Source: Escherichia coli (GTDB taxonomy: Bacteria > Pseudomonadota > Gammaproteobacteria > Enterobacterales > Enterobacteriaceae). From it: a stretch of DNA of 64,000 nucleotides. The stretch lies in the NCBI RefSeq assembly GCF_003018255.1, contig NZ_CP027440.1; one strand, given 5' to 3'. The translations under genes and the position numbers were made by a program. The notes below the pieces were generated by a model. That model saw only the letters and a program-made list of their open reading frames with translations, did not search any database and was not told the origin of the DNA. Shown one piece after another: positions 19,854 through 26,082 of the stretch; position 1 is the first letter of the stretch; each line of letters begins with the position of its first letter.

Positions 19854-20417
19854 ATGTCCTTGATTAACACCAAAATTAAACCTTTTAAAAACCAGGCATT
19901 CAAAAACGGCGAATTCATCGAAATCACCGAAAAAGATACCGAAGGCCGCTGGAGCGTCTTCTTCTTCTACCCGGCTGACTTTACTTTCGTATGCCCGACC
20001 GAACTGGGTGACGTTGCTGACCATTACGAAGAATTGCAGAAACTGGGCGTAGACGTATACGCAGTATCTACCGATACTCACTTCACCCACAAAGCATGGC
20101 ACAGCAGCTCTGAAACCATCGCTAAAATCAAATATGCGATGATCGGCGACCCGACTGGCGCCCTGACCCGTAACTTCGACAACATGCGTGAAGATGAAGG
20201 TCTGGCTGACCGTGCGACCTTCGTTGTTGACCCGCAGGGTATCATCCAGGCAATCGAAGTTACCGCTGAAGGCATTGGCCGTGACGCGTCTGACCTGCTG
20301 CGTAAAATCAAAGCAGCACAGTACGTAGCTTCTCACCCAGGTGAAGTTTGCCCGGCTAAATGGAAAGAAGGTGAAGCAACTCTGGCTCCGTCTCTGGACC
20401 TGGTTGGTAAAATCTAA
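19854..20417 (+). CDS. ahpC: Alkyl hydroperoxide reductase, peroxiredoxin subunit C
   Basis: 187-aa 2-Cys peroxiredoxin (FTFVCPTEL peroxidatic Cys, resolving Cys in EVCPA). Confidence 0.97.
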
Positions 20418-20506: not shown

Positions 20507-20587
20507 TCCCCGCACCATGATGCAAGCTGCATCCAGGTAGCCGCAGAGGCCGCTTGCATGATGATGTTTAAAGCCCAGGAGATAAAC

Positions 20588-22153
20588 ATGCTCGACACAA
20601 ATATGAAAACTCAACTCAAGGCTTACCTTGAGAAATTGACCAAGCCTGTTGAGTTAATTGCCACGCTGGATGACAGCGCTAAATCGGCAGAAATCAAGGA
20701 ACTGTTGGCTGAAATCGCAGAACTGTCAGACAAAGTCACCTTTAAAGAAGATAACAGCTTGCCGGTGCGTAAGCCGTCTTTCCTGATCACCAACCCAGGT
20801 TCTAACCAGGGGCCACGTTTTGCAGGCTCCCCGCTGGGCCACGAGTTCACCTCGCTGGTACTGGCGTTGCTGTGGACCGGTGGTCATCCGTCGAAAGAAG
20901 CGCAGTCTCTGCTGGAGCAGATTCGCCATATTGACGGTGATTTTGAATTCGAAACCTATTACTCGCTCTCTTGCCACAACTGCCCGGATGTGGTGCAGGC
21001 GCTGAACCTGATGAGCGTACTGAACCCGCGTATTAAGCATACGGCAATTGACGGCGGCACCTTCCAGAACGAAATCACCGATCGCAACGTGATGGGCGTT
21101 CCGGCAGTGTTCGTAAACGGGAAAGAGTTTGGTCAGGGTCGCATGACGTTGACTGAAATCGTCGCCAAAATTGATACTGGTGCGGAAAAACGTGCGGCAG
21201 AAGAGCTGAACAAGCGTGATGCTTATGACGTATTAATCGTTGGTTCCGGCCCGGCGGGTGCAGCGGCAGCAATTTACTCCGCACGTAAAGGCATCCGTAC
21301 CGGTCTGATGGGCGAACGTTTTGGTGGTCAGATCCTCGATACCGTTGATATCGAAAACTATATTTCTGTACCGAAGACCGAAGGCCAGAAACTGGCAGGT
21401 GCGCTGAAAGTTCACGTTGATGAATACGACGTTGATGTGATCGACAGCCAGAGCGCCAGCAAACTGATCCCGGCAGCGGTTGAAGGTGGCCTGCATCAGA
21501 TTGAAACAGCTTCTGGCGCGGTACTGAAAGCACGCAGCATTATCGTGGCGACCGGTGCAAAATGGCGCAACATGAACGTTCCGGGCGAAGATCAGTATCG
21601 CACCAAAGGCGTGACCTACTGCCCGCACTGCGACGGCCCGCTGTTTAAAGGTAAACGCGTAGCGGTTATCGGCGGCGGTAACTCCGGCGTGGAAGCGGCA
21701 ATTGACCTGGCGGGTATCGTTGAGCACGTAACGCTGCTGGAATTTGCGCCAGAAATGAAAGCCGACCAGGTTCTGCAGGACAAACTGCGCAGCCTGAAAA
21801 ACGTCGACATTATTCTGAATGCGCAAACCACGGAAGTGAAAGGCGACGGTAGCAAAGTCGTAGGTCTGGAATATCGAGATCGTGTCAGCGGCGATATTCA
21901 CAACATCGAACTGGCCGGTATTTTCGTGCAGATTGGTCTGCTGCCGAACACCAACTGGCTGGAAGGCGCAGTCGAACGTAACCGCATGGGCGAGATTATC
22001 ATTGATGCGAAATGCGAAACCAACGTGAAAGGCGTGTTCGCAGCGGGTGACTGTACAACGGTTCCGTACAAGCAGATCATCATCGCCACTGGCGAAGGTG
22101 CCAAAGCCTCTCTGAGTGCTTTTGACTACCTGATTCGCACCAAAACTGCATAA
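20588..22153 (+). CDS. ahpF: Alkyl hydroperoxide reductase, flavoprotein subunit F
   Basis: 521-aa product from [11 protein letters not shown]; redox CHNC and CPHCDG motifs, FAD/NAD GxGxxG motifs; track ORF starts 10 codons upstream. Confidence 0.96.
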
Positions 22154-22183
22154 GAAGAAGTAAGATTCACCTGCAATTGCTTA

Positions 22184-22214
22184 GCCGCCGGGGTCAAACC
22201 TGGCGGCTTTTTTA
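22184..22214 (+). terminator. Intrinsic terminator downstream of ahpF
   Basis: GCCGCCggggtcaaacctGGCGGC stem followed by T7 run, 30 nt after the ahpF stop; a palindromic GC-rich segment preceded by an A5 run (22222-22258) may serve the convergent uspG. Confidence 0.7.
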
Positions 22215-22273
22215 TTGCATTAAAAAGCCCTGCAGGGATGGCTCCGGGCAGGGCGGGAGACTTATTCTGGCAA

Positions 22274-22702
22274 TTAACGCACAACCAGCACCGGCAAATT
22301 GGCGTGGCGGATCACGCTCGAGGCGTTAGAACCCAACAGATGAGTTGAAATTGATGGGTTACGCGAACCAATCACTACTACATCTGCATCAAGTTCTTTC
22401 GCTAACTCGTTAACTTCATCCCGCACACTACCAAAACGGACATGTTGCTTAATGCGGGAAGGATCGATGGTGAAGTGGCTGACCATCGTTTGCAGACGTT
22501 CTTCTGCTTCATGTTGCAGATGCTCTTCAAAACGACGTACATCAGCGGCAAAACGGTGCAGGCTCAGGCTGGCTGACCCCGGTAGTACGTGAAGTAGATG
22601 AATAACTCCGTCATCCTGGGCGAGGAATTCAGCGTGGCGAATCGCTTTGTCGCTCAATTCCATTTCGAAAACATCCACTGGCATGATGATTGTTTTGTAC
22701 AT
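22274..22702 (-). CDS. uspG: Universal stress protein G
   Basis: 142-aa product from [11 protein letters not shown]; track ORF extends 11 codons upstream. Confidence 0.92.
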
Positions 22703-22826
22703 AAGCATTCTCTCCTTGTTTTTGCATGTATGCATAACAGCACATTATTGGTTATGAATCTATAATTTGCGAGGCTGATTTGATCTGAATTTGCTATTGA
22801 GCTGGAAAATAAATAAAAACCAGGCG

Positions 22827-22916
22827 CTACCAGCGTTGTTCAAGGTATAGCACTGCAGCAACAATAATTGCTGCTATGAATATATAAAATGCAGTGATAC
22901 CGAGAGCTTCGCTCAT
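22827..22916 (-). CDS. Candidate 29-aa small hydrophobic (single-TM) protein, unannotated
   Basis: ATG..TAG ORF translating to MSEALGITAFYIFIAAIIVAAVLYLEQRW; below the 60-aa track cut-off; weak SD; coordinates +/-1 nt; no homology check possible. Confidence 0.3.
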   Translation of the reverse strand: MSEALGITAFYIFIAAIIVAAVLYLEQRW

Positions 22917-23058
22917 ATGAGGTTCCGCAGATGAATAGCCAGTTCAGATTAGAATGCTGCGCTTAAGAGCAAAATGATAAATCTGGTTGATATTTGAGCG
23001 GAAAGAGGATGCGAGTGCATCCTCTGGGCAAAGCGAGTTATCGCTTGTGCAGATGGGA

Positions 23059-23469
23059 TTAAAGCAGGTAGTCGCCAGCAGCTTCTGGCTGGTATTCGAG
23101 TTCCAGCACTTCAAGGTGGGTTGCAACGCCGCCCGGAAGTTCCCAGTGAATGGAATCGCCAACGCGCAGCCCCAGCAGTGCGGCACCTACCGGAGCCATA
23201 ACGGAAAGCTGAGTATTGCTGTCGGTCATTTTTGCCGGATACACCAGCGTGCGCACACGCACTTCGCCATCGCTAAGATTGCGGAATTTAACCCGGCTGT
23301 TCATTGTCACCACGTCGTGTGGCATCTCTTCTGGCGAACACATTTGGGCGCGATCCAACTCTGCGTTTAACGCGTCGGCGATTGGCAAACCAGCATAGGC
23401 GGGTTGCTCCAGCAGAATATCGATGCGTTCGGCATCCAGGTCGTTAATGATGATAGTTGGTCTGGACAT
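23059..23469 (-). CDS. rnk: Regulator of nucleoside diphosphate kinase (GreA/GreB-like)
   Basis: 136-aa ORF; matches recalled Rnk. Confidence 0.92.
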
Positions 23470-23698
23470 TTTTACTCCATGTCGTCGGTACTGCGAGTGT
23501 CGCAGATAAACATACCCAAAAGAAAACCCTCACCGTCAGGCGGCGAGGGTTTAACTCACATGATGATACTGACTGTTGCTCACTCTTTGAAGTGATTTGC
23601 GTCACATTCAGGGAATTCCTCAATGTAGCGCATTATGTATAAATCTTAATCGTCATGGTTTATGGAAGACGAATTAGCGTGTTTTGTAAATCAGAGGA

Positions 23699-24505
23699 TT
23701 AATAACCTGCTTTATCAATCACAAAGGTTTTGCCACAGTTGCCTGGGTGTGGTTGTGGCAAGAATGAGTTGGCAGAAAGCGGAGCGTTGATGGCGTCAGC
23801 TTTGATCGAGATCTGAATTTCAGTCAAATACGCAGGGTTACCCTGGCACGTTAGCTTAACTGCTTTCACGTTCTCTTTTCCCCAGCTTTTGGCAAAGGCG
23901 GCATCAAAGTCACGGCGGCTCACTGTTTTACCGTAGTTATCCGCAAGGAATTTTCCGGCTTCGCTCTCTTTAATTTCTTGATTCAGGCGTACCATCGTGC
24001 CGAAGTATGCGTCTGGATCAAAACCAAAGCAGGCACCGTGTTTGGCATATTCGTAGCGTTCCAGGCAGGAACGTCCGCCAGCTCCTGGCATGACTTCACT
24101 TAGTTTAGCGGCCGTTTCCAGTGATAACCCGGTTTCCGGCGATGAACACATTCGGCTGGCGCGCGCTTCTGGTAGATTCGGGATTGGGCGAGTAGCGCAA
24201 CCGAAGCGCATCCAGCGGCGTTCATCAACACCACGGGCAGCAACCGATTTAGGCAATCCTGGCCACAGACCATGTACGGTCAGAAAATCAGCTTTGTTGG
24301 TCGTTTCGGTTTGCAGGCGACATTCATCTCGTTCGTTACGATTTCGATCGTGTTGACTCTGGCAAAATCCGGTTTGCCAGGAGAGGGCCAGGACATAGCG
24401 ATCAAAATCGCCATACTGTTTTGCCTGCAACGCCACGGCGTTGGCAGAAGAGAAGGGAAGCAGAGAAACCGCGAGCAACGCGGCGTTACGCCAGAATGCT
24501 TTCAT
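23699..24505 (-). CDS. rna: Periplasmic ribonuclease I (RNase T2 family)
   Basis: 268-aa product from MKAFWRNAALLAVSLLPFSSANA (signal peptide); track ORF starts 6 codons upstream. Confidence 0.93.
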   Translation of the reverse strand: MKAFWRNAALLAVSLLPFSSANAVALQAKQYGDFDRYVLALSWQTGFCQSQHDRNRNERDECRLQTETTNKADFLTVHGLWPGLPKSVAARGVDERRWMRFGCATRPIPNLPEARASRMCSSPETGLSLETAAKLSEVMPGAGGRSCLERYEYAKHGACFGFDPDAYFGTMVRLNQEIKESEAGKFLADNYGKTVSRRDFDAAFAKSWGKENVKAVKLTCQGNPAYLTEIQISIKADAINAPLSANSFLPQPHPGNCGKTFVIDKAGY

Positions 24506-24553
24506 AATGGGTGTGGAACTCATACATACACTGAATATTATCTATTTAATCAT

Positions 24554-24618: not shown

Positions 24619-26082
24619 TTAGTTCCACATGGCGAGAATCGGCCAGCCAACCAACAGCAACATAGAGATGTAAATCACCCCGAAGATTGCGCCAAGACGC
24701 CAGTAATCTTTTGATTTCACATAGCCACAGCCGTAAATAATCACCCCAGGACCGGTTGCATACGGCGTCAGACAGCCCATGATACCGATAGATAGCACCA
24801 GCAGGATACACAGTTGTTCCATTGGTACGCCCGGAATACCTTTACCGACGGCCAGAATAACCGGCAGCATGGTTGCGGTGTGCGCAGACAGGCTGGCAAA
24901 CAGGTAGTGTGCAAAGTAGAACACCAGAACCAGTACAATCACCGTTGCGTTTGGTGAGAATCCTTCCAGGTGCGTACTCATGGTATTGGCGAACCAGTCA
25001 ATAAAACCAGAACGAGTCAGGCCGTTAGCCATCACAACCAGAGTTGCCAGGTTGACCAGCGTGTTCCATGCGCTGTTATAGCGGGTAATGTCTTTCCACG
25101 GCACAACGTGCAGGGCCAGCATTAGCGAAACTGCCAGCAGACCAACCGCAGTAGCATTAATGACTTCACTGCCAAATACCCACAAACCTAAGCTGAGCAA
25201 TACAAGGCCAATCAGCGTCCACTCTCTGCGTGTCAGCGCACCCATGGTTTTTAGTTCATCACCCGCCCAGGTTGCCACTTCTTCACTGTGTGTGATTTCC
25301 GGTTTGTACAGCACGTAGGAAAGCCACGGCGCAATGATAAGCAAGATAACCCCAACCGGCAGGAAGCAGAGGAACCACTGCAACCAGCTAATCTGGATAC
25401 CGGCAATTTTGCTGACGAACTCCAGACCCAGCACGTTTGGTGCCGCACCGGTGACAAACATGGACGAACTCAGACTGGTACTAATGACCATCATCCACAT
25501 CAAATAGCCGCCAATACGACGCGCGGACGGATCGTTCGGGAATGATTTAAACAACGGCGGCAGGTTTTTAATGACCGGAAAAACCGTACCCCCGGTACGC
25601 GCGGTGTTGGACGGTGTAAACGGTGCCAGCAGAATGTCGATAATGACAATCGCATAACCCAACGTCAGCGTGCGTTTGCCCATGAATTTCACCAGGAAAA
25701 GGGCAATACGACGGCCTAACCCGGAAACTTCATACCCTAATGCAAAAATAAATGCGCCAAATACCAGCCATACCGTGGTGCTGGAAAAACCAGCCAGACC
25801 CCATTTCAGCGCCTGTTTTTGCGCATTAAACGCTGGGTCAGCTAATTCTTTGGCATCAAAGAGCAGGTAATTACTGCCAATAACGCAAATAGTAACCGCA
25901 ATAAAACTGATCGCCGTTGCCGGAATTGGCTCGAGGATCATGCCGACAATCATTGCCACAAACACTGCAAAGTAATGCCACGCCTGCGGCGGCATACCGT
26001 CAGGTACAGGGATAAGAAACATGACACCCATCACCACCAGGGGCGCCAATAATTTCCATATATTATCTTTTGCTAAAGACAT
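24619..26082 (-). CDS. citT: Citrate:succinate antiporter
   Basis: 487-aa polytopic membrane ORF at the distal end of the citCDEFXG-citT operon. Confidence 0.93.
   Translation of the reverse strand: MSLAKDNIWKLLAPLVVMGVMFLIPVPDGMPPQAWHYFAVFVAMIVGMILEPIPATAISFIAVTICVIGSNYLLFDAKELADPAFNAQKQALKWGLAGFSSTTVWLVFGAFIFALGYEVSGLGRRIALFLVKFMGKRTLTLGYAIVIIDILLAPFTPSNTARTGGTVFPVIKNLPPLFKSFPNDPSARRIGGYLMWMMVISTSLSSSMFVTGAAPNVLGLEFVSKIAGIQISWLQWFLCFLPVGVILLIIAPWLSYVLYKPEITHSEEVATWAGDELKTMGALTRREWTLIGLVLLSLGLWVFGSEVINATAVGLLAVSLMLALHVVPWKDITRYNSAWNTLVNLATLVVMANGLTRSGFIDWFANTMSTHLEGFSPNATVIVLVLVFYFAHYLFASLSAHTATMLPVILAVGKGIPGVPMEQLCILLVLSIGIMGCLTPYATGPGVIIYGCGYVKSKDYWRLGAIFGVIYISMLLLVGWPILAMWN

Follow-up and report, generated by a model that had tools for sequence, protein, structure and literature searches.

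The 356-bp interval between uspG and rnk in this E. coli genome contains no ybdR. It is likely the native, and probably the ancestral, arrangement of Escherichia rather than a deletion scar, with the longer K-12 block being a divergent allele exchanged by homologous recombination. The ybdR-less interval is an ordinary accessory-gene polymorphism that concerns about a third of E. coli and is already visible in RefSeq annotation. Because it is a common and already annotated lineage polymorphism, the absence of ybdR is not novel, and it matters little that short-form strains do without YbdR, an uncharacterised accessory Zn-dependent NAD(P) oxidoreductase. The value of the comparison is corrective, in that K-12 would not be the ancestral template here and the gap reads as intact intergenic DNA that carries a real small-protein gene, yldA, instead of a scar. 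What is 'missing relative to K-12' is often something gained or replaced in K-12.

Layout and contents of the interval

The window (the whole 64-kb stretch of DNA that was analysed) carries uspG and rnk between ahpCF and rna-citT, and the features of the region are collected in Table 1. UspG matches NF012000 over its full length with 313 bits, passing the equivalog cut-off of 189, and is annotated as such in the near-identical strain 104. Rnk likewise matches NF004396 over its full length (202 bits; equivalog cut-off 109) and is WP_000089731.1, the identical protein being present in K-12. The gap between them spans 22703-23058, in exact agreement with the earlier note, and its longest open reading frames are no more than 34 aa when overlaps with the flanking genes are set aside. 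An Rfam search of 22100-23700 returned the rnk leader outside the gap and otherwise sub-threshold noise, with nothing above threshold inside the gap. A terminator-like hairpin called at 23552-23524 lies inside this RF01771 leader.

Table 1. Features of the uspG-rnk interval and of its neighbours, in positions of the window
Feature	Position	Strand	Basis
ahpC	19854-20417	plus	
ahpF	20558-22153	plus	
uspG, universal stress protein G, 142 aa	22274-22702	minus	ORF list and NCBIfam NF012000
uspG RBS (AAGGAGAG) and conserved proximal upstream block, ~85 nt	22703-22787	minus	11-taxon alignment
Variable AT-rich spacer, yldA stop to conserved uspG upstream block	22788-22826	minus	Sequences downstream of the yldA stop, 29 loci
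yldA, 29-aa small membrane protein MSEALGITAFYIFIAAIIVAAVLYLEQRW, Escherichia short-form allele	22827-22916	minus	NF041476 and RefSeq
rnk-yldA spacer, including the yldA translation start region	22917-23003	minus	blastn and MAFFT against K-12
Two stem-loops just 3' of the rnk stop	23004-23050 (23028-23050 and 23004-23025)	minus	RNA fold
rnk, regulator of nucleoside diphosphate kinase, 136 aa	23059-23469	minus	ORF and NF004396
rnk leader, enterobacterial (Rfam RF01771), upstream of rnk	23515-23623	minus	124.9 bits, E = 1.2e-24
rna	23699-24523	minus	
citT	24619-26082	minus	

The rnk-proximal hairpin mentioned in the earlier note is real and consists of two stem-loops, which as a pair fold at -24.2 kcal/mol (z = -6.0) and are equalled by none of 200 shuffled sequences. 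The second stem-loop reads GAGGAUGC-ACUC-GCAUCCUC and is followed by UUUCC; it is a likely candidate for the intrinsic terminator of rnk. As a candidate terminator it combines very stable hairpins, kept across genera, with a tail of only UUUCC, and a consensus terminator scan made no call on it. The motif GAGGATGC...GCATCCTCTTTCC is present in every enterobacterial interval inspected, and both stem-loops are identical between the two E. coli haplotypes.

The small open reading frame that had been noted in the gap is yldA. Its product scores 59 bits against NF041476, for which the cut-off is 45, and covers model positions 1-29 of 29. The protein is RefSeq WP_001287361.1 in strains 104, 042, IAI39 and SMS-3-5, and the K-12 allele of yldA is a named small protein in a small-protein survey (PMC6001520). 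YldA also reaches 30 bits against NF041475, the model for the small membrane protein YoaI, which is under the cut-off of that model; on this similarity the two proteins appear to be related. The stretch 22827-22998, which includes the whole of yldA, is 95% identical to two non-coli Escherichia loci and 88% identical to E. albertii.

Between the yldA stop and uspG, the variable spacer has no stable fold (z = 0.13) and is not matched by nhmmer profiles of the 3' or the 5' end of ybdR; the equivalent position is the site of ybdR in ybdR-bearing genomes. The GC content of 22703-22826 is 34.7%. The uspG-proximal part is conserved, with a mean column identity of 77% in an 11-taxon alignment of the uspG upstream region and near-invariant blocks in the last ~85 nt. 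This block is common to other Escherichia and to many Citrobacter (hereafter 'type W'), whereas it cannot be aligned to the K-12 uspG-ybdR intergenic region past ~17 nt and has no blastn match there. It is presumed to hold a putative uspG promoter and 5'UTR. The promoter role is presumed from conservation, because a consensus sigma-70 promoter and terminator scan found nothing inside the gap.

Absence of ybdR and alignment to K-12

In K-12 MG1655 the uspG-rnk gap is 1,689 bp and holds both ybdR and yldA, so that the gene order given in the earlier note agrees with the MG1655 annotation and the K-12 interval is not equally short. There, ybdR (1,239 bp, plus strand, annotated as a zinc-dependent alcohol dehydrogenase) lies between uspG and yldA/rnk, and the 29-codon yldA is convergent with it, 3 bp beyond its end. 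The same note was right that ybdR is missing from the window. The 356-bp gap has no dehydrogenase-like frame, and no YbdR-like open reading frame of ~412 codons stands in the slot. Searching the whole 64-kb window with K-12 YbdR by tblastn gave no match at E<=0.01, and the uspG-rnk gap yielded chance-level scraps only (best E = 0.35). In the literature YbdR figures in stress transcriptomes only (PMC5105897, PMC7913699, PMC10100675), and ybdR-yldA is listed as a convergent excludon, with transcription overlap, in K-12 (PMC12288877).

Around the gap, the K-12 locus (b0607-b0610 region) resembles the window closely: ahpCF, uspG, rnk, rna and citT occur in the same order and orientation, the rnk hairpins are identical, and a 29-codon yldA lies ~140 bp downstream of rnk. 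K-12 differs in having the convergent ybdR together with a 220-bp uspG-ybdR intergenic region, and in the sequence of the parts that the two loci share. By sensitive blastn, homology ends at ~22716-22720, ~17 nt upstream of the uspG ATG, and resumes at ~22987-23000, which is the right-hand boundary of the K-12-divergent segment. The 266 bp in between (22721-22986, yldA included) have no significant nucleotide similarity to ~1,600 bp of K-12 (locus L002 1890-3489), and a MAFFT alignment produces short chance islands strewn across the region. Between the two alleles of yldA, 41 of 90 nt (46% of sites) and 14 of 29 aa are different. Even the first ~10-36 nt of uspG in the window carry 'type W' synonymous variants, K-12 being of the other type.

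Aligning the interval to K-12, from which the earlier note expected deletion endpoints, therefore gave no clean endpoints, the flanks of the window not being collinear up to a single junction. Nor was residual ybdR coding or promoter sequence found. Two nhmmer profiles built from 23 taxa, one of the ybdR 3' end and one of the ybdR 5' end with the uspG-ybdR intergenic region, gave no hit at E<=100, either in the window or among the remaining Escherichia short forms. As a positive control, the same profile detects a 54-nt ybdR 3' remnant in Enterobacter asburiae TN152 with E = 1.3e-11. Like the window, TN152 (locus L056 ~1056-1124, compared with L026) is missing ybdR between yldA and uspG. In contrast to the window, it is a true deletion: its flanks are collinear with those of a ybdR-bearing E. 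asburiae up to one junction, and a 54-nt piece from the 3' end of ybdR survives. The window has neither feature. Genuine ybdR deletions thus do occur in this slot.

A clean and recent loss of ybdR in this strain or clone, starting from a K-12-like ancestor, would account for the size difference of 1,689 against 356 bp and for nothing else that we observed. It is opposed by the missing collinear junction, by yldA and uspG 5' flanks of a different allelic type, and by an identical structure in 1,818 genomes, in several phylogroups and in other Escherichia species, and we regard it as very improbable. The earlier note had left the choice between a strain lacking the gene and a clean deletion: the absence holds, and the clean deletion is contradicted by the want of a junction or remnant, by a state that is not strain-specific and by graded divergence.

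The MAFFT alignment also suggested two 'ybdR fragments' in the window, 22744-22765 (ybdR codons ~56-64, at 18/22) and 22722-22743 (the ybdR start), neither of which is significant by blastn or profile. K-12 contains a 40-nt imperfect inverted repeat, 70% complementary, with arms at L002 1879-1918 (uspG-proximal upstream) and 2248-2287; its ybdR arm corresponds to codons ~52-65, the region of the GHE zinc-ligand motif. The spurious 'ybdR remnant' matches in the window arise because the motif belongs to an imperfect palindrome that is also found upstream of K-12 uspG. Direct or inverted repeats that would mark a mobile element or target-site duplication at K-12 ybdR were looked for, and only chance-level short repeats were found.

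Distribution of the short and long forms

Within E. coli, we scored the short form by a 298-bp core of the gap in 5,426 complete genomes. The short form was present in 1,818 of these and ybdR in 3,605. The two are mutually exclusive save for one suspect assembly, and they jointly cover 5,422 of the 5,426 genomes, that is, all genomes matching the region. Strains 042, IAI39, SMS-3-5, ATCC 25922 and O25:H4 were checked directly and have the short form; K-12, O111, O104:H4 and O157:H7 have ybdR. By their established phylogroup assignments, which we take as given, the short-form strains belong to B2, D and F and the ybdR-bearing ones to A, B1 and E, this spread being that of the reference strains checked, with phylogroup D represented by strain 042 alone. 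Among these reference strains, the locus could be used as a simple marker to tell the lineages B2, D and F from A, B1 and E.

An assembly or sequencing artefact that collapsed the region has a negligible chance of being the explanation. One public genome, HH97, does carry a noisy chimeric allele, yet nothing of the kind is seen in the window, which matches an independent complete genome at 99.9% identity over 1.6 kb; the short form also recurs in 1,818 complete genomes. The HH97 allele (NZ_CP116409.1, locus L083 2656-3323) is a unique third allele, in which K-12-type uspG is followed by ~190 bp of ybdR 5' sequence, ~70 bp of short-form-like spacer and K-12-type yldA. Its ybdR 5' piece is annotated as a frameshifted pseudogene, and its yldA is extended to 46 codons. 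We considered HH97 as a 'missing link' and rejected it: 34 of its 59 substitutions relative to K-12 are to C, indels are many, and identity to K-12 is 100% over the final 65 nt ahead of the junction. The allele is probably an assembly artefact or chimera and not an evolutionary intermediate.

Outside E. coli, a scan for Rnk in species-representative genomes returned 80 loci, E. fergusonii and the GTDB E. coli representative not being among them. E. albertii and two other non-coli Escherichia have an interval of 353-355 bp made of the same parts, with a YldA that is identical or one residue off. Taken together with 042, IAI39 and SMS-3-5, these intervals measure 353-356 bp and diverge from that of the window by 1-13% nt. 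They differ from it by ordinary point changes only, with some having different mosaic alleles in the 3' half of uspG. Over the 356 bp there are 4 mismatches to E. coli D and F strains, ~21-26 to non-coli Escherichia and ~45 to E. albertii. The divergence of the interval is in step with species distance, which makes the short form an orthologous arrangement passed on vertically throughout the genus.

The yldA alleles give the same picture at finer scale. The window yldA differs from those of other short-form Escherichia by 2-6 nt. The 6 nt that separate it from E. albertii are all synonymous; so are the differences in one of the non-coli species, and the other has a single amino-acid change. 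K-12 yldA is more distant from the window allele than that of every Citrobacter compared (22-36 nt), and in these nucleotide comparisons it lies far beyond the variation seen among all Escherichia short forms.

Two allelic types emerge. 'Type K', defined by the yldA, uspG start and upstream region of K-12, groups with C. koseri, C. amalonaticus, C. sedlakii, Salmonella and Enterobacter, and 'type W', that of the window, groups with the remaining Escherichia, with Citrobacter sp. R56, NCU1 and Awk 4, and with the C. freundii complex. In these type W Citrobacter the RBS and the upstream block next to uspG are homologous to those of the window. YldA of R56, NCU1 and Awk 4 is identical at 20-22 of 29 residues, and nucleotide identity is ~72% over 170 bp. 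The C. freundii complex differs in being without yldA too, with intervals of 183-205 bp, and the divergence of Citrobacter is of genus level.

Across the Enterobacteriaceae the slot takes four states. Neither yldA nor ybdR stands between rnk and uspG in Kosakonia, Kluyvera and the C. freundii complex (~150-200 bp). The order rnk-yldA-uspG (~350-400 bp) is that of the Escherichia short form, Lelliottia, Phytobacter and some Enterobacter and Citrobacter. The order rnk-yldA-ybdR-uspG (~1.65-1.8 kb) is found in K-12, C. sedlakii and many Enterobacter, and rnk-ybdR-uspG without yldA (~1.5 kb) in Salmonella, E. hormaechei and Leclercia. Short-form genomes from at least five further genera have 110-140 bp between the yldA stop and the uspG start, and their uspG-proximal ~85 nt are homologous to those of ybdR-bearing relatives. 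With such like spacing and homology of the ~85 nt, ybdR therefore occupies one fixed slot. The presence of yldA is itself patchy across the family and independent of that of ybdR, Salmonella and E. hormaechei having ybdR without yldA.

Origin of the two arrangements

We propose that E. coli carries two old allelic versions of the slot. The short 'type W' would comprise rnk, its putative terminator, yldA, the uspG control region and uspG, all on the minus strand, and the long 'type K' would bring a very different yldA, a convergent ybdR and a different uspG upstream region. Homologous recombination may have swapped whole blocks, with the conserved uspG and rnk flanks as anchors and with ends near uspG codons ~3-12 on one side and ~60 bp downstream of rnk on the other. 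On the Escherichia tree the short form is the more parsimonious ancestral state, because it is found in the outgroups and in B2/D/F and the long form in A/B1/E only; the ybdR-bearing block would then have come into E. coli, for the first time or again, in the common ancestor of A/B1/E. Both the direction, a gain in the K-12 lineage rather than a loss here, and the recombination mechanism are what we infer from these patterns.

K-12 ybdR has ~79.5% nucleotide identity to Salmonella and C. sedlakii, which have the closest orthologues sampled, and the corresponding values of its neighbours are 81-82% for rnk and 77-79% for uspG. A recent donor of the K-12 ybdR block was sought among 23 ybdR-bearing species, none of which is closer than ~80% nt. 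This divergence of K-12 ybdR, equal to that of rnk and uspG, counts against a recent import.

This equality with vertically inherited neighbours would also be expected if an ancestor, of Escherichia or of Escherichia together with the type W Citrobacter, had possessed ybdR and lost it once, all trace having since decayed, and if K-12 types had retained it, as a polymorphism of long standing, or re-imported it. Such an ancient deletion accords with the occurrence of ybdR at ~80% nt identity in the same slot of Salmonella, C. sedlakii, the Enterobacter cloacae complex and others, with the demonstrable deletion in TN152, and with the character of the spacer at 22788-22826, which is AT-rich and poorly conserved as decayed DNA would be. 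Multiple losses of ybdR do occur, because its presence is patchy across the Enterobacteriaceae and one loss is seen directly in TN152. However, neither tblastn nor the nhmmer profiles detected a ybdR remnant, and the 110-140 bp spacing is alike in several genera, unlike the outcome of independent deletions. An ancient deletion further requires that alleles differing at 46% of yldA sites coexisted through several speciations, or else an extra re-import. We consider it unlikely, though it deserves some weight. Under either history, gain in the K-12 lineage or ancient loss, the lineage of the window has not gone through a recent loss of ybdR that began from a K-12-like state.

The proposed exchange of old alleles may bear on the regulation of the neighbouring genes. 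All three genes of the short form, rnk, yldA and uspG, point the same way, without the convergent ybdR-yldA overlap reported for K-12; given this orientation and the different uspG upstream region, expression of yldA and uspG may be wired differently in the two forms. It is conceivable, though we think it improbable, that the divergent alleles of yldA, the uspG promoter and, where present, ybdR have been kept by selection as a trans-species polymorphism in Escherichia and Citrobacter, as opposed to reflecting a neutral history of recombination. If that were true, UspG and YldA would be wired differently, a convergent excludon standing against a co-directional rnk-yldA-uspG arrangement that allows read-through, and B2/D/F strains would differ from A/B1/E strains in stress regulation.

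Of 9,047 region-matching places in the E. coli collection, 6 are on plasmids. In strain MSB1_9D, a 300-kb record that is not the main chromosome (NZ_LR890350.1, 98573-99199) carries an rnk homologue 81% identical to the chromosomal gene.

By its pattern of sequence differences, uspG is itself a recombination mosaic. In a patch at 22331-22430 (codons ~92-124), 18 of 100 nt differ from K-12 against a background of ~1-2%, and a second stretch at 22251-22300 was also noted. Escherichia have a minimum of three or four deeply divergent alleles here, and these do not track the presence of ybdR: in the patch, K-12 has 92% identity to one short-form non-coli Escherichia and the window 91% to another. 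The 3' end of uspG in IAI39 is yet another allele.
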